This document shows, one piece after another, positions 3,496-54,499 of a stretch of DNA of 64,000 nt. The notes below the pieces were generated by a model. The model did no database searches. It had not been told where the DNA came from and saw only the letters and a list, made by a program, of their open reading frames with translations. The DNA is from Eledone cirrhosa (lineage: Eukaryota): the NCBI GenBank assembly GCA_964016885.1, contig CAXHJY010001169.1:79306-143305 (forward strand). Direction: 5' to 3'. A program made the translations under genes and the position numbers. Position 1 is the first letter of the stretch. Every line of letters begins with the position of its first letter.

Positions 3496-3806
3496 ATTAT
3501 TAAAATTCATCTCATCAAATGTTGAGTATTGAAATAAAAAATGAAAAAAAATTAATAGGAGTGGTAGTGAAGATAGCAGCAGCTATGTTTCTTCACAGAA
3601 CAAAGTTGTTTTGGGGGGGACAAAGGAAACATCCTGTAAATATGTGTGTGTATATCTGATTGTGTTAATTGACTGATCAAGAGTTCAAAAGGATATGGGG
3701 AATTGTAAGCTAGAAGTAAAGTCAGCAGGAGTGTAAGAGAATTTCTATTATTGGAATATGGTTTTAGTGAGTGTGTGTATATATATATACATAGTGTGAG
3801 GGTGTA

Positions 3807-4700
3807 CGAGGTGTGTCAGAAAAGTTCCAGGACTGATGTCACAAAAGATTTATTTCAAACCCAAACTTCACACTAAGAGTTTTCTCCTTCAAAGTAATCC
3901 CTCTGGATTATGTAACTGTAATCTTAGCTCTCTGCAGCGATCAAACTTTTTTCTTCATAATTTTATATACATGTCCTCTGTTTCAGGTCGTCAAGCAATG
4001 AGCACAGAGAAACTAACAAACTTGAAGTTTCTGGTACGGTTGGGGAAAACTCCGTCAGAAACACTGGGATTGCTGCAGGAAGTGTATGGAGATGAGACGA
4101 TGTCACGCTCACGTGTTTTTGAGTGGTGCAAGAGGTTTAAAGAAAGACGCGAGGACGTGGAAGATGACCCCAGGAGCGGAAGGCCCTCAACAACCAGGAC
4201 TGAGGTCAACGTTGAGCGCGTCAGGCAGATGGTGCGTAGCGATCGTCGGCTGACTGTTCGACTGATGGCAAATGAGCTGGGCATGAATCGGGACAGTGTC
4301 TGGAAGATTCTCACTGAAGATTTGGACATGAGGAAAGTCTGCGCGAAAATGGTGCCAAAACTGCTGAACGATGACCAGAAGGGTCGACGCATGCAAGTGT
4401 GCCAGGACATCCTCGAGCGTCTTGAAACCGAACCAGACTTGCTAGGGACAGTCATCACCGGTGATGAGTCATGGATCTTCGAGTATGACCCGGAGGACGA
4501 CATCAAAAAGGCCGTAACGACGGAACTGCGGAGGATCCCGGAAGAATCCTTCAAAGAGTGCATGCAAGCGTGGCAGAAAAGGATGGAAAAGTGCATTAGA
4601 CTCCAGGGGGATTACTTTGAAGGAAAACTCTTAATGTGAAGTTTGGGTTTGAAATAAATCTTTTGTGACATCAGTCCTGGAACTTTTCTGACACACCTCG
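3807..4700 (+). mobile_element. Internally deleted mariner element with ~100-bp terminal inverted repeats
   Basis: TA-flanked TIRs CGAGGTGTGTCAGAAAAGTTCCAGGACTG... / ...CAGTCCTGGAACTTTTCTGACACACCTCG; contains a transposase ORF. Confidence 0.95.
3998..4639 (+). CDS. Mariner transposase, in-frame deletion derivative (HTH domains intact, catalytic domain largely missing)
   Basis: MSTEKLTNLKFLVRLGK...VFEWCKRFK...DDPRSGRPST...KVCAKMVPKLL...VITGDESWIFEYDPE joined directly to DDIKKAV...RMEKCIRLQGDYFEG. The HDNA and YSPDLAP motifs are absent. Confidence 0.85.
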   Translation: MSTEKLTNLKFLVRLGKTPSETLGLLQEVYGDETMSRSRVFEWCKRFKERREDVEDDPRSGRPSTTRTEVNVERVRQMVRSDRRLTVRLMANELGMNRDSVWKILTEDLDMRKVCAKMVPKLLNDDQKGRRMQVCQDILERLETEPDLLGTVITGDESWIFEYDPEDDIKKAVTTELRRIPEESFKECMQAWQKRMEKCIRLQGDYFEGKLLM

Positions 4701-14046: not shown

Positions 14047-16667
14047 TACTTATATAAAGCTGAGCGTCGTGTGTATGTGTATGTATGTATGTAGCCTACA
14101 CTCCTCCCTATACTATTTAACCTAAAATACTTTTATATCCATCTCTTAGTGAAGCATTTTCAATTCATTATACGTAAACAATGACATTAATTTTTCGCTT
14201 GGGAACAACGGCACCAAACACTACCCCAGAGCCTTCACCAGGGAAACTTTCACTGGGGTTGACGGCTACCCCATCTACCGGCGGCGTGCTCTCGATTTTG
14301 GCGGCCTTTCGCTAGGATTAAGAAGAAAGGGAAAGCATACGACATTGACAACAGCTGGGTGGTGCCTTACAGCCCTTTGCTTGCTAAAATTGTTAATGCT
14401 CACATCAATGTGGAGTCCTGCACATCTGTTAAAAGCATTACATACATATGCAAATACATCAACAAAGGCGGCGACATGGAGGTGGTTGACCTCAGTGATG
14501 GCGTAGAATCAAAAGACGAAATTACCAAGTTCATGATGGGAAGATACATTTCGTCCAATATGGCGGCTTGGCGCATTTTGGGGCTTGAAATTCACTGGTG
14601 CTCTCCAGCAGTTGTTAACTTGGATGTTCAATTAGAGAATGGTCAACGCGTTTATTTCACTGAGGAAACCGCATCGGCTGCTGCCGAACAGCCACCTGAG
14701 ACGACGCTTACAGCATTTTTTAAGCTATGTTCTGTCGATACGTTTGTATTTACCCTTTTTTACGTCGATGTACCTATCTACTTCACTTGGTCGCATGCGT
14801 GAAGCGCCAGCTACTCGAGGATGATGCCCACCTGAACGTAGCGTTGACAGAGGCTGCTGAATGTAAGATGCCTCGAGAGATGAGACGTCTGTTTTGCATA
14901 ATGCTATTGTTCTGCGGCATAGGTGAGCCCCTTAAGCTTTGGGAAACGCATAAGGACAACATGTTAGAGGACATCCTCCGTAGACTACCAGCAGAAGATC
15001 CAGCGGCTGGCTTTGCTTTCAACGACGCGGTGTACAATGAGACCCTCATTGACATGGACAGCAATCTTAAAGCTCTTGGAGTTGGCGGTGTATCTGATTT
15101 CGTTTGCCACAGCCTCGAAACACTCAGTGCTTTAGATGTGGAGTTCATGCATGAGTTAAATTACAACATCGACGATATGACACATCAGGTAGCTCAGGAC
15201 GAACCCAGACTTTTGCATGACCAGAGACGGGCATATGACAGAATTCTCTCCAGTGTCAATTCAAATGAGGGACGGCTATTTTTCCTGGATGCTCCTGGCG
15301 GAACAGGAAACACTTTTCTCATCAACCTTTTGCTTGCGAAGCTACGAAAAGACAAGCGGGTTGCTTTAGCGGTCGCCTCCAGTGGTGTTGCAGCGACACT
15401 GCTACATGGCGGTCGTACGGCACACTCCGCATTCAAATTGCTTTGGACATTGCAAAGAAGGAGAATCCTACATCTAGAATAGATCGTGGCGACCCTAAAG
15501 CACACCTTCTTTCTGAGTGCTGCCTGATCATATGGGACGAGGCTACCATGAGTCACAAGGCGGCCTTTGAGGCTCTGGATCGAACTCTTAAGGACTTGCG
15601 TCGGAACTCACGCGTCATGGGTGGAGCGACAGTACTGCTGGCTGGCGATTTCCGCCAGACTCTTCCTGTTATCACTAGAGGCACTAGAGCTGACGAAGTG
15701 AACGCATGCATCAAGTTGTCCTACGTATGGCAGTATGTCCACAAACTACATCTGACTACCAACATGAGAGCGCATGTCCATGGTGACGCAGACGCCATCG
15801 ATTTCTCAAAACATCTACTGGAAGTTGGTAATGGAACTACACCTGGAGTGGATGAAGAGCATATCCATTTGCCTTTTGGGAACTTTGTGTTAAACATTGA
15901 CGAATTAATGTCATCTGTATTTCCAGACCTTGAATCACGCTGAAAGGGAGAGCTATTTTGGCACCACAGAATGTCACTGTTGATGTGATGAACCAAAAAC
16001 TACTCGATCAGATTCCCGGAAATGAAGTCTCCTTCAAGTCAATTGACACCAATAAAAACGCGGACGCCGCCGTCATTTACTCAATTGAATTCCTCAACAG
16101 TCAACTACCCCCAGGACTTCCTCCTCATGATCTGAAACTGAAGGTTGGTGTGCCAGTTATGCTGCTGAGAAACATGGATGCACCAGAACTATGCAACGGA
16201 ACGCGTTTAATCATAACAAATTAAGGACACAAATTCTGGACACAACCATTTTAAGCGGACCCGCTGCTGGCGCGACAAGGTTAATTACCCCTATGAGCCT
16301 TAGTCACTCTGACGTCCCCTATGAATTTACGTGACGGCAGTTTCCCATAAAACTCTGCTTTGCAATGCGCATTAACAAAGCACAAGGACAATCGCTGCAA
16401 GTGGTTGGCCTAAATCTAACACAGCAGGTATTTTCCCATGGTCAACTATACGTCGGATGCTCCCGCGTCGGCAGTCCACACAATCTCTTCATTTGTGGTA
16501 ACCCGGGCAACACCAGGAACGTCTACAAAGAAGCCCTGCAATAACATGTTTGAACCTTACTCTACCCAACGTCTCTCTGTGAAACCACTCTCTTCACGTC
16601 GCCCCTCAACTTATTAACTTAATAAAAAGTGGCCCCGAGTAGCCCCGAATGCAACCGGCTCAGCTGC

Positions 16668-20559: not shown

Positions 20560-20705
20560 AAAAAAAAGAAAGAAGGAAGTGTGGTGTGTGGCAAGGAACC
20601 AGGTGGACCATAACGCACCAGAGTACTCAATACTTAGTGGGTAATAGGAACATTTTCAAGATCCCGACGGCAGCGCTCAAGCCGTTTCGACGGCTATTTC
20701 TGGAT
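20560..20705 (-). mobile_element. PLE pLTR fragment (3' half of the 19.9-kb HHR family)
   Basis: Matches 19935-19995, 21660-21805 and 28200-28335. Confidence 0.75.
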
Positions 20706-20956
20706 CTTTTTAAAGTGAGGAAAGATTGTGCACTGAGCCAATCCCACTCTCTGAGCGACAGTAGCTATAACCCGAAAAGAAGAAAAGATCAACATTATCG
20801 GTAATTACTGAGCCGCAGGTTTTATATCGGAGTTATCCCAGTTTCCTGCGTTGCCTTCTCCTAGAAGAATGCCATAACAAAGGTTAGGGGTCCTTCACTC
20901 CAAGTGGTTTAACCGCGCGATCGGGTGTCCAGCCCGACTATTTCTATGTCCCCGCG
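20706..20956 (-). mobile_element. RTE LINE 5' UTR fragment
   Basis: Highly similar to 36340-36590 and has the same 5' end (GCGCGGGACATAGAA). Confidence 0.85.
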
Positions 20957-21029
20957 CATATACATACACATGCACCCATGGATATACACATATACATATA
21001 CATATCTACATGTGTATATACATATTTAC

Positions 21030-21320
21030 ACACTGCTGGATGGTCGTTTACTCTTATGAGTTCTTCCGCCCTTTGTCAGGTTTTGTTTTTTGTCCTGCAG
21101 GGTGTCCAAAATCACCCTCCTCCCCAAGAAAACTTGGTGGGGTTGCCGGTTTAGTCACCGATGACCCGACCATGCGACAGGTTGTACTGTGTTACATGTT
21201 ACCAGTAGCACTCATGAGTGACCCGACACACACACACACACACATATATATATACACGTATATAAAGGCACTGCACAAAGCCAGTCCCACTCTCTTAACC
21301 AAGATGATATTTACCAAAAA
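21030..21320 (-). mobile_element. Fragments of RTE-derived non-autonomous family B
   Basis: 21030-21226 matches 37360-37550; 21265-21320 matches 22095-22152. Confidence 0.8.
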
Positions 21321-21321
21321 G

Positions 21322-21540
21322 AAGGCGTGTGGCTGAGTGGTTAGAGAATTGGATTCGCAATCGTAAGGTTGTGAGTTCGATTCCTGGACCAGGCGATGCG
21401 TTATGTCCTTGAGCAAGACACTTTATTTCACGTTGCTCCTTCTACCTGGAGTTGCGACCGATAGATAGTATTAGCAATTGGAAAGACCAACGGAAACATT
21501 GTTCCCTCGGTCCGATTTGACGAAAGTCGATCGTTCCTTT
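21322..21540 (+). mobile_element. tRNA-derived CORE-type SINE
   Basis: GGCTGAGTGGTTAGAG (A-box)...GAGTTCGATTCC (B-box)...TGTCCTTGAGCAAGACACTTTA (CORE-like). Second copy at 25228-25445. Confidence 0.82.
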
Positions 21541-21805: not shown

Positions 21806-21850
<45 letters not shown>

Positions 21851-21854
<4 letters not shown>

Positions 21855-22312
21855 TGGCTGCCAACTCGTTTTCGAGTACGTCCACTACTTTATATCCATG
21901 TAGGAGAATCCCTACCGATGCGCTGAACGAGTGTGACTTTTTAGTCCAGCCAGTGACTTGAAAACTCTGGTACAAACACTACACTTGTGACAATTATTGA
22001 CACAGTGCTGGGCCCATGGTACCATGTGACGACAAGTGCAGAGAGATCTCCAGATATAAAGCAATGCCTGTGCCGTGAAGCTTTTATAGTGAGCAAAGGC
22101 ACTGCACAAAGCCAGTCCCACTCTCTTAACCAAGATGATATTTACCAAAAAGAAGAACAAGTCAACATCATTGGATACCATCAGGGTTGCAGGTGTTATA
22201 TCAGAGTTTTCCTTCTCCTAGAATTCTGCCTTGACAAAGGCTAAGGGGTCATCTCTCCCGGTGATTTTGGATGGCCATTGACTCTTAAGAGCTCCTTTGC
22301 CCTTTGACAGGT
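21851..22312 (-). mobile_element. Bipartite RTE-derived non-autonomous element, family B (5'-truncated)
   Basis: RTE 5'UTR motif CTAGGAGAAGGAAAACTC joined to a 3' end encoding CSVCTRVFKSLAGLKSHTRSAHR*, then the tail CTCGAAAACGAGTTGGCAGCCACCAT. Confidence 0.88.
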
Positions 22313-22349
<37 letters not shown>

Positions 22350-32153: not shown

Positions 32154-32387
32154 TATATCACCATTACGGATGATATATCATCATCATCATCATCATCATT
32201 ATCATTATCACCATCCAGTTTTTGATTATGTAGGACACAATTAATCTCTAAGCCCAGCTTGATCCCGACGGATATCCTCCACCCAAGTCCTTTTTGGTCT
32301 CCTTGGGCCTCTACTGCCTCATGAATCGACATTCATCACTACACATACATATATACATACATACATGCATAAATACATACATACATA

Positions 32388-32470
32388 CATGATGGCTGCC
32401 CCCTCGTTATCGAGTATGGCCATTGCACGAGGAGAAAAAAAAAAATTAATAGATAAATAAAAAAAAAAAG

Positions 32471-32522
<52 letters not shown>

Positions 32523-35500
32523 ATATACATATATACACACATATATATATACACACATATATACATTAATAATAATAATAATAATAATAACAACAATAAT
32601 AATATACATATACATATACATATATATATACACACACACGCGCACACATAAACATATCTATACACACACACGATAGCAACTAACAGCGCTGCGATCGAAT
32701 GTGGCTTTTTAGCCCAGCCAATGATCTAAAATGTCTTGCACAGAGTCGGCAACCAAAACATTCACTGGGAATAGCCGGCTGTGGTTGGAGTTCATGTACT
32801 TTTGCATGTCGCTTGAGCCCTCCTGCTGATTTACATTCTCTACCACATGTTTGGCAAGCATGATGAGTAGCATGTCCAACAGCAGCCTGGTAGTCAACCA
32901 CTGGTCTTACTTTATGACTGCGAAGATGACTTTCGAGTCCAGCTTTGCTTAGGCAGAGTCTCGCACAGATGCTGCATGTCAGCACCATAGGAGGACCCTC
33001 GCCTTTCTGGAAGTGCAACAGCAATGCCCTTCCTCACACCCCGCTTTACTTTCTCGTATGCGATTCGAGATGCCTCAAAGGCAACTTTTCCCTCATATAC
33101 AGTCTTTCTCCATTTATTACGATCAGCAGCAATATTTTCCCATGTATCAGCAGAGATGTTAGCGTCTTTCAAAGAGGCTTTCAAGGAATCCTTATACCTC
33201 TTTTTTGGTTTATGTGGCGGTCGTTTTCCTTTAACCAACTCTCCATAAAAGAGTTGTTTTGGTATTCTAGAATCCTTCATCCTGGCAAGGTGACCACTCC
33301 AACGGAGTCGTTGCTTAAGCACAAGAGCTTCTATACTGTCACACATAGAGCTTTCCAAAATCTCGACATCACTGATGTGGTCCCTCCAGTGAACGCCATG
33401 GATCCGTCTGAGACACATCTGATGGAAGCGCGCCAATTGCTTAAGGTGGTGTCGATATGTGACCCAGGTCTCGCAGGCATAAAGAAGACAAGAGAGCACA
33501 CATGCCTTGTACACCTTTACCTATGTCCTCCTGCATATGTCTCGCCGACCCCAGAGTCGCCTTTCTAGCTTTCCGAAAGCATCACTTGCTTTCCTAATCC
33601 TAAGTGAGATTTCACTGTCAAGGTTGCTGTATCGATTGACAGTGCTTCCCAGGTAGACAAACTGATCAACCACTCCAAGTCGTTTACCATACACATAGAT
33701 ATTTGGTTCAGTGTACTGCTTACCAGGGGCAGGTTGGTACATGACGACGGTTTTCTTGAGACTGACAGTCAATCCTAGGGCAGTGCAAGCGTCAGAAAAT
33801 GCATTCAAAATGTGCTGCATATCACTCTCTGTGTGCGCTACAAGATCGCAATCATCTGCATACAAGTGGTCTCTTATGATTGATGTAAATACTTTTGTCT
33901 TTGCAGCAAAGCACCTGATGTTAAATATGCTGCCTGAGGTTCGATATCGGATGTAAACACCATGCTCGCAATTCCTGAATTCAATACAGCAAACCATTGC
34001 AAAGTATATGGCAAACAGGGTCGGTGCTGGAATATCCCCCTGTTTCACTCCATTTTTTTTACTGAGATAGGCTCCGACATGTTACGTCCGACATTAACCC
34101 AAGCCTTCATGTCGTCATGGAAAGACCTAACTAAAGCAAGGAACTTATCAGGGCAACCAAGTTTCTGGAGAACCTTCCATAATGCATCTCTGTTAACAGT
34201 ATCGAAAGCTTTTGTCAGATCGACAAAAACCTGATACAGATCCAAACCTTGTTCCATGCACTTCTCCTGGAGCTGTCTAGCTGAGAAGATCATATCAGTA
34301 GTGCCGCGTCCAGCACAAAAACCAGATTGACTTTCAGGAAGAACACAATCTGTAATGTGTGTCAGCAGACGCTCCAGAAGCACCCTACATAAAACTTTCC
34401 CTACGACAGAAAGCAATGATATACCTCTGTAGTTCCCACAATCATTCCTGTTACCCTTTCCCTTGTACAAGACCACCATTACTGCATCTCTCCAGTCCTC
34501 AGGTACGGATTCATTAGCCCATATCCTGCCCCAAAAAGAGTGAAGATGTTGCAGGAGTCTCTCACCACCATATTGTAGGAGCTCAGCATGTATGCCATCC
34601 ATACCTGGAGACCTTCCACTGTTCAGCTTCGAGATAGCCACTGCAACCTCCACAAGCGTCGGAGGTTCTGCGAGAGCTACTTTCACAGGACTTTCTGGAA
34701 TGAGATTGAGAAAATCTTCACTGACGACAGACGGCTGATTCAAAAGATCATCAAAGTAGAATTCCTTGTGAGTCACGAAGATGTTATTTGCCATCCTTGC
34801 TGCGAAGCGGTATCACCAGAGAAGAAGACGGTCCATAAACCTCACACAAGAGACTGTACAACAGCTTTGTGTTATTGGATTCTGACGCAGTTTGTATCTC
34901 ACCAGCCTTCTCACTCCACCACTGATCCTTTATCTGAGAAAGACTCCGCCTAACACGTGATTTTACATCGTTGTGTTCCTCATGCAACGTATTCCTCTCC
35001 TGTGGTTTTGCCGTCAAGTAGCGTGACAGAGCACGCCTCTTATCAGCCAACAAGTTTTCTATATGTACATCATTCTCATTAAACCAGTCCTGATGTTTTC
35101 TCTGCACCAATCCCAGAACACGCCTGCCTACATCATAAACCGACTTTTTAAGGGTCGGCCAATCCTCACCAAGATCTGCAGCCTGCATCTCTTCTTCCAA
35201 TGTCCTCTTCACATTTTTATCCTTAAGACGAGCAGCATTCAATCTTTTGGACAGGGGAACACCAGGAGCCCGGATTTTACGTTTAGTGATTAGTTTCACT
35301 TTTGCGCGTACCAGGCGGTGGTCCGTCCAGCACTCAGCTCCACGAAGAGCACGAACACACTGCACATCCTGTCTGTCACGCATCCTGACTAGGACGTAGT
35401 CCAAAAGATGCCATTCCTTAGATGCAGGATGCATCCATGTGGTCTTGAATTTGTTCTTTTGTTGGAACATGGTGTTGGTAACACACAGATCCAGCTCCTC

Positions 35501-36590
35501 ACACATCTGCAGCAGGAGCATACCATTGTTGTTACACTTTCCCACCCCATGCCTTCCGATTACATTCCATGTTTTAAAATCCCTACCCACTCTAGCATTA
35601 AAGTCACCAAGCACGATGACTTTGTCTGCCTGAGGGATATTTCTTAAAACACCTTTCAAGGCATGGTAAAAGAACACTTTTTCTTCATCAACAGAATTCA
35701 TAGTTGGAGCAAACACACTCACCAGAGTCGCATATCTTCCTTTGTCCAGCAGAATTCTCATGGACATAAGACGCTCACTAATCCCTACTGGGAATTCTTC
35801 TAATTTATTCACAAGAACAGTCTTAACAGCAAATCCTACCCCAGCCTCTCTTCTGGTTCCTTCATCTCTTCCTTTCCAGAAGAATATATATTCTCCACAA
35901 AATTCTGTAAGATGACCATCTCCAGTTAACCTCGTCTCAGATAAAGCCACGATGTCAAGATCGTAACGTCGAAGCTCCTTTGCAACAAGAGCGGTCCTTC
36001 GTTCAGGACGTTCCAAGGAATCCCTGTCAAGCAGCGTCCGTACGTTCCAGCAGCCAAGACTAAATGCCTTGTTTGGCTCTATTACAATGGCACGATGATG
36101 AGCGGGCCCAGGCTGTGATAACCTGGGGCCCCTGCCCTTATTGCCAATTTTCTTTTTTGTTCCAGAACCTAAATTGCCAATTATCTCTTTAATATTGTTC
36201 TGGAACATCATTGAATTGAAAAAAAAAAAAAAAAATAATAATAATAATAATAGTAACAATAATAATAATAATAATAATAATAATAGTACACTATTAATAA
36301 TTATTAATGCACTCGTGCAATGCCTGTGCGTGACGAATATTTTTAAAGTGAGAAAAGACTGTGCACTGAGCCAATCCCACTCTCTGAGCGACAGTAGCTA
36401 TAACCCGAAAAGAAGAAAAGATCAACATCATCGGTAACTACTGAGCCGCAGGTTTTATGTCGGAGTTAACCCAGTTTCCTGAGATGCCTTCTCCTAGAAG
36501 AATGCCCTGACAAGGGCTAGGGGTTCTTCACTCCTAGTGGTTTAACTGCGCGATCGGGCATCCAGCCCGATTATTTCTATGTCCCCGCGC
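32388..36590 (-). mobile_element. Near-full-length RTE-clade LINE (family A)
   Basis: 5'UTR with CTAGGAGAAGGCATCTC motif; single APE-RT ORF; 3' tail TCGTGCAATGGCCATACTCGATAACGAGGGGGCAGCCATCAT. Microsatellites lie inside both UTRs. Confidence 0.93.
32680..36211 (-). pseudogene. RTE ORF: APE endonuclease + reverse transcriptase + C-terminal C2H2 zinc fingers
   Basis: WNVRTL, LSETRL, GDFNARVG, LLDYVLV, TDHRLV (APE); QSGF, FVDLTKAFDTV, KQGD, YADD, YLGS (RT). Frameshifts at ~34790, ~34046 and ~33000, and a nonsense codon at 33521-33523. Confidence 0.95.
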
Positions 36591-36940
36591 GCACCCCCCC
36601 CCCCCCACCAAAACTCACTTATTGATACTTATACGTACGACATACACACACGCGCATACATACGCGCGCACACACACGCATATATACGCGCGCGCACAGC
36701 AACACTCATACATACAAACAAGCACACACACGCTACTCACTTACACACGCACACACATATATATATATTACCGTCATTACTGATACAAGATTTCAAGATT
36801 ATGTCAACTGTTGACTTTCAAAAGTTTGTATAGTTGAAGTCGTTCGTATTACAGTCCAGTATTATTATAATTGCTTTACAGCATAGAGCTGTACTGGTAC
36901 TTATTTAAATCTCTCTGTCTCAACATACATACATACATAT

Positions 36941-37550
36941 ATGGTGGCTGCCAACTCGTTTTCGAGTATGGCCACTACTTTATATCCATGTAGGAGAACC
37001 CCTACCGATGCGCTGAACGAGTGTGACTTTTTAGTCCAGCCAGCGATTTGAAAACTCTGGTACAAACACTACACTTGTGACAATTATTGACACATAGTGC
37101 TGGGCCCATGGTACCATGTGACGACAAGTGCAGAGAGATCTCCAGATATAAAGCAATGCCTGTGCCGTGAAGCTTTTATAGTGAGAAAAGGCACTGCACA
37201 AAGCCAGTCCCACTCTCTTAACCAAGATGATATGTACCAAAAAGAAGAACAAGTCAACATCATTGGATACCATCAGGGTTGCAGGTGTTATATCAGAGTT
37301 TTCCTTCTTCTAGAATTCTGCCTTGACAAAGGCTAAGGGGTCATCTCTCCCGGTGATTTTGGATGGCCATTGACTCTTTAGAGCTCCTTTGCTCTTTGAC
37401 AGGTTTTGTTTTTAGTCCTGCAGGATGTCCAAAGTCACCCTCCTCACCAAGAAACCTTGGTGGGGTTGCCAGTTTAGTCGCCAACGACCCGACCATGAGA
37501 CAGGTTGTACTGGGATACATGTTACCAGTAGCATCAACTGGTGACCTGAC
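36941..37550 (-). mobile_element. Bipartite RTE-derived non-autonomous element, family B (longest copy)
   Basis: Near-identical to 21851-22312 and extends further 5'. Confidence 0.9.
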
Positions 37551-38147
37551 CATACATACATACATACATACATACATACATACATACATACAATATTTAT
37601 GCTTCCGCGTGTGCTAGTCATTTACCTATTAGGTTACATGACTATATAAACAACACCGCATACGTAATTTGTTCACACACAAAGAAAATAATATGTATAT
37701 AACAGGAAATCTCTCATATGAAAAGCAATTGACATTATATGAAAATAATTGAGCAGTGTCTAATAAAAACAAAACACACTGTTAAAGAAAGAAAACGAAA
37801 CGGTGTTGGTTCGAGGAAAACTCGATCCGCCTGAGGTCGCACTTAACGTCACCCCAGTTACGTTGGACAGCGGTACACTAGGATAGGGAAGGCCAGACAT
37901 GACTCATGCTCCCGGATCATGTCAGGTTCTGTTGTCTTGTAGGGGATCTCTTTGACGTGTGTGCGGCTAGAAAAGATTGAGAAGAGATAGCGTAACGGAC
38001 TGAGGGACAGACGGACAGACAGCGCTATTATTATAATATAGATTATCATAAAATTTCTTTTCGTTTTTATTTTTATTAAACATTTTTTTTTTAAATCAGA
38101 AAAGAAGGAATGAATTTGATTTCAAGAAAAAATAAACAATGTAGACA

Positions 38148-40449: not shown

Positions 40450-41490
40450 ATCGGGACGTGAGGACAACTTAGAGGCTCGATATGCAATAAAGTTTTGTGT
40501 CAAGCTCGGCAAATTCGCCGCAGAAACCTATAAAATGGTCAAAAACTGCTTACGGACTAACTTTCATGAGCCAGATGACTGTTTTTTGCTGGCACAAGAG
40601 GTTCCAGGAGGACAGGGAGAAGGTTAGGGGTGATGAGAGTTGTGGCAGGGTGACGGACATCAGGACGCCAAAGTTGGTCGACAAAATTCGCAAATTTCTG
40701 GACAAAGCCCGTTGTGCATCTGTTTTGACGATTACTAAACAATTTGAAGTGGCTGAGGACACAGTGCATAGAGGCATTCATGATGATCTGAACATGCGCA
40801 ACGTTTGGGCAAAGTTTGTTCCGAAAATGCTCAATGAAGATCAATGGCAGAGGCACGTTGATGACAGCAGGGAGATGGTTGAGTGGATCGCTTCCAATCC
40901 AAGTATTCTTAAGTTTCTGGTAACCTGTGACGAGAGCTGGGTTTACTGTTATGAGACCAAGAGACAGTGGAAACATTCTGAATCCCCAAGACCCAAGAAG
41001 GCCAGGCAAAGCAGGTCCACTGGGAAGCTCATGATAATCTCATTCTTCTACAGCAAGGGTATCATCTACATTCAATGGGTCCCACACGGTCAGACAGTCA
41101 ACAAAGAGTGCTATGTAGAGGTTTAAGGCAGTTCAGAAAGAGATTTCGTCGCAAGAGACCAGAACTCTTCAAGCTTGGTCAGTGGCACTTGAACCAGGTT
41201 AAAGCTCCCTGCCACAAATCCATCCTGGTGACCAACTACTTGGCTGATATGGAGATCAGGACTTAGCCTCATATGACTTCTGGATGTTCCTGAAGCTGAG
41301 GCAAAAGCTCAGAGGTATGCACTTTGAAGATATAGAGGAGATAATGGAGGCCGTGATAAGCGCCCTGGATACCTTCACTTTGGAGGACTACAAGGGGGCT
41401 TTCAGAAGTGGCTGGACACTACAACAAGTGCATTGAAGCCGGGCGATCGTACTTTGAGGGAGACTTGAATTTTGTGTTGATCCGAGTAAA
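40450..41490 (+). pseudogene. Mariner (DD34D) transposase pseudogene
   Basis: YAIKFCVKLG, WHKRFQE, WAKFVPKML, VTCDESWVY, GKLMIISF, QWVPHGQTVNKECY, YDFWMF, KCIEAGRSYFEGD; frameshifted. Confidence 0.9.
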
Positions 41491-43411: not shown

Positions 43412-43504
43412 TTGGGGCGGGTCATATTTGTGTAATAATATTGCCAGAATTATATATATATATAAATTATATAATTATCAAAGTTGTGTTCAAATCATTT
43501 AATA

Positions 43505-43549
43505 GCTGACAATCGTTTCTTCCAAACTCTCATTTAAAGTCATCGGAGC
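43505..43549 (-). ncRNA. Hammerhead-like motif, U4C core (inverted copy at 45998-46042, + strand)
   Basis: GCT CCGATGA CTTTAAA-TGAGAG-TTTGGAA GAAA CGATTG TC AGC. Confidence 0.55.
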
Positions 43550-44924
43550 ATTATCAATGTTTGTACATGTAATTAACCTCCTATTCAACTGAACAATAAT
43601 ATAGATACATATATATTGATGTTGTGAGCAACAGTTTCGTATTTACAGGGTGGAATGGATGTGACATATTTTACGATAATTGTACAAAAATTCAAATTCA
43701 AATTCAAATTAAAACACAGAGTGGAATACATGCAACAGATAATACAGATAATACAAGAGAATATTCCAATAATTAAAGAGGCATTGTGAAAGGAGCTTTG
43801 AGAAAGAAAAGGTTCATTAGCAATACATATGCAGGTGTGTAGAAAGTGCACATGCGTTAGACATATATATGAGAAGGAAATAAACAAAGTTATTATGCAT
43901 ATATACATAATAAATACTGTATTTTAAGCGAAAATGTAGTGTATTAAAATCTAAGGTGTACGTAGTTTGTTGATAGTGTCCGAATTTGTGTGTGTTGAGG
44001 AGAATACAGTTATTGCAATCTCTTCCATTACATATGTTGAATTATATTTTAGTTAATGTTTATATTGAATGTTTAAGTTAGTTAAAGCAATGGATTGTAA
44101 ATTAGTCTTAGTGTATCCATATACAGGGACTACATTAGCTCAACAGTTAGGTTTTCTAACGGTTAAAATATCCGGAAGTGAGTAAGGGGAGCTAATGTGT
44201 AAGGGGAGGTAACTAGCTAATTAAATTCTGTTATTCAAAATCTTTGCTCTAATACACATTATAATGTGATACTATAGAATCTCTATTACATAATCCTATA
44301 CATTTATACTTGATTTAAAACACATACATTTATACTTGATTTACATTAAAGCTCCCTTAAGATTGTTATCCATTCATTACTGGACAAGATATATGTTATG
44401 GAAAATAGCTGTTTATATGTTTAACTAGATATATCACCAGTGCAACAAAATACATTATTGTTTAAAAATTAATCCCATGCATACGATGCTATTACATTAT
44501 ATATTTAAATATAAATGTATATATACTTTATTATTACTACATTATGTTAAAGGTAGATCCCTTATATACATGTTATCAATTTAAGTATTTAATTACACAA
44601 ATGTCTATATAGTTTATTATTACATATTACATTAAATGTCTTTATATATTAAATATCCATTACTTTATATAATATAATTAAGCTATACTAGTTATACCAA
44701 AAGGTGGTAACTTTATGTTTAATTCTAACAGTTATTGCATAGTATAAGGTTAGAGGTACATAGGAGTTGTGTAGTGGGAAGAGCTGATCTAAGAGTGTGT
44801 AGTTGTGGGGGTTGATTAATCCTAGATGTGAAGTGTTAAAGGTGGTGGAGAATTCAAATCTGACATTGATATAACTAACAGCTAGGTTTAAAGTTATGGA
44901 AAGAGTGACTGTATCGGTGTTGGC

Positions 44925-45275
44925 ACGAGGAAAATGTCTCCGACTTTTTATTAAGGAGGTCTGGTTTCGAAAAGATTATAGTATGGGTCTCTAGAAGACA
45001 GAGATTACACAATTTATTCGGTGGTTTATACGATGAGGCCCTACCTACTACTTCCCATTGCAGTGTAAATGGTCTATTCCTAGTTTTCAGAGAGTGTACG
45101 TAGCTAGATAAAGAAGTGGAGTTGGCTAGATTGTGTTTCTTGAAAGAGTGGAGGTGCGAGTTGTATCTTATCTTGAAGCTGTTCGAAGTAGAGCCGATAT
45201 ATGTTTTAGAATAGTTGTTTGCGTTGACGGTGCATGAGTAGATGATGTCTTTGGCTAAGAAATTATTACCTAAGG
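44925..45275 (-). pseudogene. Penelope GIY-YIG endonuclease relic (absent from the ORF track)
   Basis: Hand translation: KDIIYSCTVNANNYSKTYIGSTSNSFKIRYNSHLHSFKKHNLANSTSLSSYVHSLK...WEVVGRASSYKPPNKLCNLCLLETHTIIFSKPDLLNKKSE. Confidence 0.9.
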
Positions 45276-46215
45276 GGCAAGTTCTATTAGTTCTACAGTT
45301 ACATTTATTCTGGGTGTTAGCTTGCCGGTTTCTATGTTGTGAAGAATTCTGGTTGCTATTTTAACCGTTAGAAAACCTAGAAAACCGTTAGAAAACCTAA
45401 CTGTTGAGCTAATGTAGTCCCTGTATATGAATACAATAAGACTAATTTGCAATCCATTGCTTTAGCTAACTTAAACATTCAATATAAACATTAACTAAAA
45501 TATAATTCAACATATTTAATGGAAGAGACTGCAATAACTGTATTCTCCTCAACACACACAAATTCGGACACTATCAACAAACTACGTCCACCTCAGATTT
45601 TAATGCACTACATTTTCGCTTAAAATACAGTATTTATTATCTATATATGCATAATAACTTTGCTTATTTCCTTCTCATATATATGTCTAACGCATGTGCA
45701 CTTTCTACACACCTGCATATGTATTGCTAATGAACCCTTTCTTTCTCAAAGGTCCTTTCACAATGCTTCTTTAATTATTGGAATATTCTCTTGTATTATC
45801 TGTATTATCTGTTGCATGTATTCCACTCTGTGTTTTAATTTGAATTTGAATTTGAATTTTTGTACAATTATCGTAAAATATGTCACATCCATTCCACCCT
45901 GTAAATACGAAACTGTTGCTCACAACATCAATATATATGTATCTATATTATTGTTCAGTTGAATAGGAGGTTAATTACATGTACAAACATTGATAATGCT
46001 CCGATGACTTTAAATGAGAGTTTGGAAGAAACGATTGTCAGCTATTAAATGATTTGAACACAACTTTGATAATTATATAATTTATTTATTTTCCTGCTCT
46101 GTAAAACAACTGATGTTCATACATTGAGATATTTCTCTTACTGGTAATAAGGTAATAGGAAATTACTGACCTACCTGTTTATGGTTGTTTATACTACATA
46201 CATAACTATAAATAG

Positions 46216-49924: not shown

Positions 49925-51108
49925 AATTCTTACAATGCCATTTCGAAATTGAAAGGCAAAGTTAACCTCGGCGGGATTTGAACTCAGATCATAAAGGGCC
50001 GTAACTCTATGTTGCAAAGCATGGCGTCCAACCCTTTACCGATACTGCCAATTCACCGCCTTGAAATTATCAATAATAAAAATACAAACTGATAAACGCT
50101 CAGTGTAGGATTCACTTGCAGAAAGTATCAAAGTTGGAAAGAACCAGTTGGTAAAGTATCTGTGGGGGAAGCTATTAGTTTTGTTCGAATATAACCCTTT
50201 CCTTACCAAATTTATAATGAAAGACACTACCTATGATATTCAAATAATTTGAAGGTATTTAGAAATATAACTAACTTAATCATTATTAAACTGATATGTG
50301 GAACATAAAGGTTATTATATAAAATTATCGAGGACGGTTTGTTTAAATAAACATAAACACTTTAAAACAAATAAATTGCAAACAACATTATAAATATGAA
50401 GATTATGAAGATTAGAAACATTGGTTGGATTTGAAGCATCCTTAGATGTAAGAATCCCAAACACAGAAAATAACTGTAACCACAGTCGATTGCTGTAAAC
50501 ATTAGCTTAGAAAATCGGGTAAAGTACCCCTGTAGCAATCGACTGTGGTTACAGTTATTTTCTGTGTTTGGGATTCTTACATCTAAGGATGCTTCAAATC
50601 CAACCAATGTTTCTAATCTTCATAATCTTCATATTTATAATGTTGTTTGCAATTTATTTGTTTTAAAGTGTTTATGTTTATTTAAACAAACCGTCCTCGA
50701 TAATTTTATATAATAACCTTTATGTTATGTTCCACATATCAGTTTAATAATGATTAAGTTAGTTATATTTCTAAATACCTTCAAATTATTTGAATATCAT
50801 AGGTAGTGTCTTTCATTATAAATTTGGTAAGGAAAGGGTTATATTCGAACAAAACTAATAGCTTCCCCCACAGATACTTTACCAACTGGTTCTTTCCAAC
50901 TTTGATACTTTCTGCAAGTGAATCCTACACTGAGCGTTTATCAGTTTGTATTTTTATTATTGATAATTTCAAGGCGGTGAATTGGCAGTATCGGTAAAGG
51001 GTTGGACGCCATGCTTTGCAACATAGAGTTACGGCCCTTTATGATCTGAGTTCAAATCCCGCCGAGGTTAACTTTGCCTTTCAATTTCGAAATGGCATTG
51101 TAAGAATT
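49925..51108. repeat. Near-perfect long palindrome (arms 49925-50494 / 50534-51108)
   Basis: Arms are identical by eye apart from a ~5-bp indel; 39-bp spacer; each arm contains a truncated SINE. Confidence 0.95.
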
Positions 51109-54246: not shown

Positions 54247-54499
54247 GCAACTCAGGAAACTGGGATAACTCCGACATAAAACCTGCGGCTCAGTAGTTAC
54301 CGATGATGTTGATCTTTTCTTCTTTTCGGGTTATAGCTACTGTCGCTCAGAGAGTGGGATTGGCTCAGTGCACAGTCTTTCCTCACTTTGAAAAAAATCT
54401 TCACGCACAGGCATTGCATAATAGCATTAATTAATAATTATTGATAATGTTAAATCGTGCAATGGCCATACTCGATAACGAGGGGGCAGCCATCATCAT
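54247..54499 (+). mobile_element. Bipartite derivative of the family A RTE LINE (5'UTR joined to 3' tail)
   Basis: 54247-54418 matches the reverse complement of ~36315-36485; 54455-54499 matches the reverse complement of 32388-32430. The whole ORF is absent. Confidence 0.9.

Follow-up and report, generated by a model that had tools for sequence, protein, structure and literature searches.

Complementary and covarying arms at the two ends of RTE retrotransposons of Eledone cirrhosa and their relatives: a candidate part of the template-recognition signal

Long interspersed elements (LINEs) of the RTE clade have given rise to non-autonomous derivatives, namely Bov-A/Bov-tA, Mar-1, AfroSINE, WALLSI and the AviRTE short interspersed elements (SINEs), in which a piece of the RTE 5' untranslated region (UTR) is joined to the 3'UTR (PMC5786205, PMC4844689). 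Such bipartite derivatives arise in limited LINE groups, the cause being stated as unknown (Kojima 2018, PMC5786205), and no pairing between the two parts is described in the portions of these accounts used here. In this work we analyzed a window of 64,000 nucleotides of the Eledone cirrhosa genome (GenBank assembly GCA_964016885.1, contig CAXHJY010001169.1, positions 79,306 to 143,305), which harbors a copy of an RTE LINE (family A) and copies of two short families, B and C, which, as well as a third one (D), are likewise derivatives made of an RTE 5'UTR and 3'UTR. These elements and their relatives possess two complementary arms of some 8-16 bases, which covary between families; the first immediately follows a conserved, structured box of the 5'UTR, and the second immediately precedes the 3'-terminal hairpin. 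It is likely that the ends of the RNA pair via these arms, and the helix is rather probably part of the template-recognition signal read by the RTE reverse transcriptase (RT).

Three described systems resemble this arrangement. Vertebrate R2 proteins bind a pseudoknot-hinge-stem structure at the initiation of target-primed reverse transcription (TPRT), and compensatory changes rescue it (PMC11601368). In the 3'UTR of vertebrate A-clade R2, the order is pseudoknot, short linker, stem with free letters and 3' template end, the same as in RTE elements; however, the R2 module occupies only the final 65 nt of the 3'UTR and has been seen bound in cryo-EM (PMC11601368), whereas the RTE module is predicted and split across 3.5-3.9 kb. 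Indeed, RTE elements show a covarying pseudoknot with a stem after it, close to the 3' template end, only once both UTRs are paired; this module is not contained in the 3'UTR, since the pseudoknot and one strand of the stem lie 3.5-3.9 kb upstream. The RTE module also has an extra terminal hairpin and belongs to an APE-type LINE, and no homology with R2 is claimed. The CYC5/CYC3 cyclization of Ty1 (PMC7969010) is likewise a long-range 5'-3' pairing; it lies close to a 5' pseudoknot and is linked to reverse transcription. Ty1, however, is a long terminal repeat (LTR) element relying on tRNA priming and strand transfer, whereas RTE elements use TPRT and have no strand transfer to serve. Lastly, the 3'UTR stem-loops of stringent LINEs, including the plant RTE/Au-SINE hairpin (PMC6007223, PMC5135761), are of the same kind as the terminal hairpin of A and B, which shows double changes between families; in the models proposed for these LINEs the 3' end alone is needed, unlike the split RTE module.

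A first-pass annotation of the window, made from the sequence alone, had proposed a helix between the two UTRs of A, kept by two derivative families. The coordinates and letters that it gave for the arms are all correct: those of A (Table 1) form 11 Watson-Crick pairs, being perfect complements on the minus (sense) strand, and those of the two B copies (37145-37158 with 36973-36986, and 22053-22066 with 21883-21896) form 14 pairs including two G-U, which two further G-U lengthen to 16 in both copies. The hairpin that it described in a derivative at 54.2 kb does keep the seven pairs, plus one G-U, but this derivative belongs, as a decayed copy, to a real family (C), in which an A-like 5'UTR is joined via a 36-nt A/T-rich loop to an A-like 3' end. 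The parts of C are 92-94% identical to A. B is not derived from A itself, being only 69% identical to A in its 5' part and having as its middle the zinc-finger-coding end of another RTE. Both UTR arms are retained, as proposed, in every short family met here (B, C, and D).

The same pairing was followed through the copies of each family. In 22 full-length copies of A, the commonest pair is Watson-Crick at 11/11 positions and 13 copies are fully paired; the subfamily with an intact frame shows a G-U at pair 9 and has lost pair 11. All 16 pairs of B are retained in 28/30 copies. The usual form of C has 12 pairs, in which the G-C of A at pair 11 is replaced by T-A, a double change; the pattern used to search for C fixed pairs 1-7, the informative ones being 8-12 only, and pairs 11-12 are present in 28-30 of 30 copies. 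Family D possesses its own helix of 13 pairs, with two double changes with respect to B. Hence the arms of A, B, C, and D differ by double changes, yet each family pairs. In the contigs of four other sequencing runs, neither arm of B was changed, and hence no new covariation emerged.

By itself, the 11-bp match of A is at chance level: A alone contains four separate non-repetitive perfect inverted matches of at least 11 bp (five 11-mers), about 2.4 being expected. Since this lone match is not significant, the evidence lies in the fixed register and in the covariation. Covariation over further families had been set beforehand as a test of the helix, and it was found. Metagenome contigs were scanned with an alignment of 32 relatives, which yielded 80 loci; no relatives were found in the viral contigs scanned. 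The 28 loci inspected match from the N-terminus far into the open reading frame (ORF), the 52 partial loci staying outside the set, and 18 of them, each with a 5'UTR box and a 3' end, were kept. The 5'UTR was short or interrupted in L124, L135, L139, L143, L166, and L173, and the 3' end was missing in L130, L132, L141, and L169; L122, L134 (contig stops at the hairpin), and L148 (hairpin decayed) were anchored by likeness. The RT regions of the 18 relatives have a median identity of 48%, the closest pairs reaching 89% and 76%. When the 23 nt following the box were compared with the 3' end (A and B excluded), a helix of at least 8 bp was formed with the own partner in 12/18 elements, in one fixed register, against 17/306 mismatched combinations (mean -11.2 vs. 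-4.4 kcal/mol), and none of 200,000 permutations was as good. Removing one member of each close pair left 10-11 of 16 own combinations against 11-12 of 240 mismatched ones. The 20 arms, those of A and B included, are all different and have on average 2.6 of 10 bases in common, which is the chance level; all four Watson-Crick pair types occur at positions 3-9, the registers span 5 nt, and 9 or 10 of the 10 positions are paired in 13/20 own combinations against 4/380 mismatched ones.

It might be argued that these figures reflect chance or a choice of favorable cases: one 11-bp inverted match is expected in 4.5 kb, only 18 of the 80 loci were used, and the anchors were initially placed by eye, which counts against our interpretation. 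However, loci were dropped for missing ends and not for failure to pair, and the result withstands several controls besides the mismatched partners. Repeating the test with anchors placed by a leave-one-out profile, built only from the sequence upstream of the arm and found in 14 of the 18 relatives, gave 9/14 own against 10/182 mismatched combinations. Pairing remained in 0-3 of 17-18 elements when the 5' window was shifted by 25-150 nt, and in 0-2 of 16-18 when the 3' window was shifted instead. An effect, although a modest one, persists even without anchors: over 20 elements, A and B among them, the 27-nt stretch that precedes the terminal hairpin pairs better with its own 5'UTR (up to 700 nt) than with others (-23.2 vs. 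-20.5 kcal/mol, p 3e-5). Chance is thus close to refuted and, in our opinion, exceedingly improbable; the helix is almost certainly real and under selection.

The published consensus ends, which were compared by eye in part of the supplement of Kojima 2018 (PMC5786205), are in agreement with this. Arms are present in 6/6 autonomous consensus elements shown with both ends: in Bov-B, ACCCCATGAA (5'UTR) is complementary to TTCATGGGGT (3'UTR); in RTE-3_AMi, CATGACATCG to TGATGTCATG; in RTE-1_PSi, with a double change with respect to RTE-3_AMi, CTTGACATC to GATGTCAAG; and in RTE1_LA, ACCTTATG to CATAGGGT, while RTE-11_AMi and RTE-4_PPo have shorter arms. The 5' part of RTE-3_AMi, RTE-1_PSi, and WALLSI can also be aligned with the box of A. 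Hairpins are visible at the junctions of WALLSI1/1A/2, Bov-A2, SINE-1_Pmo, SINE2_Gav, CoeSINE4, SINE2-1_PXu, SINE2-1_EC, and MonoRep87A/B, those of HaSE1 and HaSE3 having been left undecided; the MonoRep87A/B elements, whose 3' ends are labelled unknown, contain box, arms, and hairpin. In the supplement of PMC4844689, again compared by eye, ManaSINE1 and GymnSINE show the box and a junction stem. Lastly, and on the same by-eye basis, tRNA- or 5S-headed SINEs, which are non-coding and were born independently, have preserved the box, the arm, and the hairpin while losing the remaining 5'UTR.

The box, which the first-pass annotation overlooked, is a stretch of about 60 nt ahead of the 5' arm with two interleaved stems predicted to form a pseudoknot. 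On a plain, unfitted MAFFT alignment of 18 sequences (L126 being too short and L136 omitted), 85% of the cells are paired, compared with 68% after shuffling (0/500 as good), and double-sided changes occur at 9 of the 12 pairs. The slid controls reach 35-62%, the structure being favored over them because it was read from the same sequences. Each stem pairs better within than between elements (p ~2e-5 and ~4e-5), and the H-type order is found in 17/19 elements. Some RTEs carry a 5' ribozyme resembling that of hepatitis delta virus (HDV), a nested double pseudoknot with P3/L3 and P4 located at the 5' end. The box was considered as such a ribozyme and does not fit, since it lies in the middle of the UTR and, in the elements compared, just 3-10 nt separate stem 2 from stem 1, too few for P3-L3; moreover, a search of ribozyme families at E-values up to 5 in 32300-37700 gave none, and the Rfam matches were only microsatellite-driven and below threshold.

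Some observations weigh against a functional helix closed by these elements. The helices of L118, L120, L125, and L140 are only interrupted or weak, and the 10 G-U against 6 A-C pairs within the helices do not fix which strand pairs. Stem 2 of the box is short, with only 3-5 bp in several elements (3 bp in L131 and 4 in A), so that we place less confidence in the predicted pseudoknot than in the long helix. Local folding assigned the helix a probability above 0.5 in 30/30 copies of B (340-nt piece) and 28/30 of C, and in just 6 of 23 decayed copies of D; energy-only folding placed it in the minimum-energy structure of one of six full-length RNAs and gave it a probability of 0.05 in the whole 612-nt B copy of the window. 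The prediction of long-range pairing is known to be weak (PMC7969010), and for this reason we weigh these misses lightly. In addition, plant Au-like SINEs are reported to share just the 3'-terminal region with their RTE (PMC6007223), and the 5'UTRs of tobacco RTEs are frequently swapped (bioRxiv 2022.11.04.512097); the pairing rule may therefore be restricted to animal lineages.

Which role the helix might play can be sketched as follows. The arms, 3.5-4 kb apart, would pair in the RNA and loop out the whole reading frame, bringing together, in this order, the pseudoknot, a short linker, the stem (whose loop is the ORF or its remnant), the terminal hairpin, and the repeat tail; the RT would then recognize the joined module by its shape at the start of TPRT. 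A module split in this way would explain why, of the whole 5'UTR, non-coding SINEs that have a promoter of their own retain this piece alone, and why the letters of the arms are free while their register to the terminal hairpin is fixed. It would also fit that gene-writing templates based on RTE-1_MD contain both UTRs and an L2-2 template the 3'UTR only (PMC13708176, which, in the part used, does not say that both are required). From these data we infer that the two arms are paired in cells, that the joined module is bound by the RT, and that this is the reason why RTE parasites need to be bipartite.

A different interpretation is that the helix and the pseudoknot act on translation or on contact with the ribosome (a closed loop, a non-standard initiation, or an RNA parked on ribosomes to catch newly made RT) rather than on RT binding. 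In 13 of the 18 relatives, whose stop codon either precedes the hairpin loop by no more than 25 nt or lies past it, the 3' arm and the end of the coding sequence overlap; in addition, the box lies at a steady 320-420 nt ahead of the start of the endonuclease. Both features would suit such a role. Alu-domain SINEs are thought to gain RT through ribosome association. The conservation of the Alu domain in these SINEs (PMC7245038) is also in line with this idea. However, the end of the helix is at a fixed distance from the terminal hairpin and not from the stop codon, whose position varies from -210 to +21 nt from the hairpin loop over the relatives (about 270 nt upstream in A). Since the tRNA- or 5S-headed SINEs keep the helix in spite of being non-coding, retrotransposition is favored over translation, and the ribosomal interpretation appears unlikely. 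Translation may nevertheless intervene in another way: given the overlap of the 3' arm with the coding end, a translating ribosome would open the helix, and the module could then close on no RNA other than a full-length one with no ribosome reading through it. Such a switch, likely as a side effect, would represent a possible hand-over from mRNA to template.

As Watson-Crick covariation is blind to the strand, and as the ratio of G-U to A-C pairs is not decisive, the pairing might instead act at the DNA level, at a late stage of integration: the arms would pair within the cDNA or between it and the RNA, either bringing the 5' junction to the target or assisting the priming of the second strand. 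Nevertheless, the four non-Watson-Crick pairs fixed in B and the variant pair of young A all read as G-U when taken on the sense strand, the fold of the neighboring pseudoknot is of RNA type, and 5'-truncated copies without the 5' arm integrate normally; we consider this possibility decidedly improbable. An equally low credit may be given to the idea that the complementarity merely steers internal deletions, the RT skipping the looped-out middle, and is functionless in the parent LINE. The junctions of B, C, and D do all fall within the loop, but the loop remnants range from 36 to ~155 nt, so the breakpoints are not at the helix; furthermore, autonomous elements with 48% identical RT keep a family-specific complementarity, in one register and often in coding sequence. 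Deletion steering may still contribute to the birth of derivatives.

The template-recognition reading can be extended to a general statement, which we judge equally open to being right or wrong: animal RTE LINEs, including Bov-B and RTE-1_MD, would define their template by a split module, in which a 5'UTR pseudoknot is clamped to a 3' hairpin by a sequence-free helix. The RT would copy only RNAs that possess both ends and are not translated through the stop codon, 5'-truncated copies would be dead templates, and every parasite would be forced to be bipartite.

As for the families themselves, A is a young one with a single ORF, and an intact sister copy (L112) contains one frame of 1,244 codons with the Pfam domains Exo_endo_phos and RVT_1 and weak C2H2 matches; open frames of ~1,200 aa occur in many copies (147 scored of 27,578 candidates). 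As in other members of the RTE clade, one long ORF encodes an APE endonuclease and an RT, without ORF1, and the 3' end consists of a short hairpin and a simple-repeat tail, without poly(A). The RT tree comprises A and the metagenome relatives and no named RTE, the likeness to RTE-3_AMi, RTE-1_PSi, and AviRTE being that of UTRs and 3' ends compared by eye. In its layout, A also matches the description of RTE-2_OV of Octopus vulgaris (PMC9115989), with a single ORF of ~1,100 aa (endonuclease, RT, and C2H2 finger), a microsatellite-filled 3'UTR, and a 5'UTR of ~600 nt; the part of that account consulted does not describe an RNA structure. The possibility that the RTE frame is an insertion into the loop of a short element was rejected: of 26 copies of A retrieved through their 5' part, 22 extend to one common 3' end, located ~3.7-4.5 kb downstream (one of them carries an internal shortening), and show the same layout of 5'UTR, ORF, microsatellite, and 3' end. 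In the window copy, a weak local hairpin (4 bp, 4-nt loop) at 36301-36322 (-) overlaps the 5' arm and would compete with the long-range helix.

The pattern of the terminal hairpin of A, B, and C has 36,401 exact matches in the genome, compared with 0 for a control pattern. B is a non-coding family of ~610 bp (2,378 candidates, 40 scored at 98-100%), C, judging by 3,418 exact matches to its junction, has at least that many copies, and D, older and met while scanning flanks, has 604 matches to its 5' pattern, with the same junction in 23 of the 30 read. Each of the three is thus a multi-copy combination of an RTE 5'UTR and 3' end with one shared junction. Among the 100 matches listed out of 120, none joined the 5' arm of B to non-B sequence, as an autonomous partner of B would, and thirty 3' ends taken in genome order comprised 23 of B, 4 of C, and 3 of A type, none with a different head. 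A second, older autonomous RTE of this genome (E) possesses its own 3' arm; its 5' end was not found, 20/20 fetched copies being 5'-truncated at about the same place, and the pattern of its predicted arm gave 14 matches, 9 of which were variants of D and 5 unrelated to any box. All 20 copies of E (L317-L336) end near the same codon, and those displayed have common flanks; it seems that one old fragment of E is carried inside a larger repeated unit.

B and C have in common a 5' head of ~190 bp (37360-37550 (-), 21037-21238 (-); L197-L226), unlike the 5' end of the copies of A that were read; this difference suggests that the A lineage swapped its 5' end, which would resemble the swaps described in tobacco RTEs. 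Copies of A, B, and C are often found inside one another's (ATGT)n tails (L063, L065, L070, L077, L205, L208, and L210), pointing to a shared target preference. The features of the window are listed in Table 1. In addition to these, a C-type copy at 20704-21238 (-) stops a few bases short of the second pseudoknot strand, hence without both arms, and a B fragment lies just upstream of it (21264-21324).

Table 1. Coordinates of the RTE elements of the window and of their predicted RNA features.
Feature	Position	Strand	Remarks
RTE LINE copy A	32340..36895	-	5' end approximate; single endonuclease-RT-zinc finger frame, frameshifted here
A coding region, first AUG to stop	32680..36211	-	
A frame pieces	34784-36397, 34045-34812, 33521-34081, 32912-33520 + zinc-finger end	-	
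A 5' arm of long-range helix	36312..36322	-	
A 3' arm of long-range helix	32421..32431	-	
A 3'-terminal hairpin	32398..32420	-	directly after 3' arm; then (ATGT)n tail
A 5'UTR box, predicted H-type pseudoknot	36326..36383	-	
A box stem 1	36383-36375 with 36353-36345	-	predicted
A box stem 2	36366-36363 with 36329-36326	-	predicted
5'UTR segment common to A and B	36474..36523	-	by-eye likeness to OegopSINE/RTE-3_BF alignments, in the part of the Kojima 2018 supplement used
Full-length family B element, non-autonomous, ~610 bp	36943..37550	-	made of a head, the 5'UTR domains, a short remnant of the coding end, and the 3' end
B 5' arm, 16 nt	37143..37158	-	
B 3' arm, 16 nt	36973..36988	-	then terminal hairpin 36950-36972
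B 5'UTR box, predicted pseudoknot	37160..37214	-	
Second B copy, 5'-truncated	21843..22318	-	both arms present (22051-22066, 21883-21898)
Family C copy, decayed, 5'-truncated	54247..54495	+	arms 54412-54423, 54453-54464

Other repeats are also present in the window. The broken frames at 14263-15943 (+) resemble a Helitron Rep/helicase, and we take those at 3800-4639 and 40491-41126 (+) to be remnants of Mariner-like transposases. Long near-perfect inverted repeats were observed at 43458-46089 and 49925-51108 (707 bp at 98%, with nested ones of 384 and 193 bp at 100%); the first of them embeds a frame (44875-45360) that we assume to be GIY-YIG/Penelope-like.

The first-pass annotation knew of no description of the helix. 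In agreement with this, the full-text literature, in the parts searched, gave no account of a 5'-3' pairing of RTE ends or of the box pseudoknot, while subscription papers on Bov-A, Sauria SINE, and AfroSINE, as well as company patents, could mention a junction hairpin. If the proposed reading is true, it answers the open question of why the SINEs mobilized by RTE elements, unlike most, keep a piece of the 5'UTR. RTE-mobilized SINEs with unknown 3' ends, such as MonoRep87A/B, would become recognizable, and designers of RTE-based gene-insertion templates would be shown which UTR bases have to be changed jointly. Lastly, the conservation of a pairing between the two RNA ends would then be shown for the first time across a clade of non-LTR retrotransposons, one that includes Bov-B, a highly successful horizontal mover.

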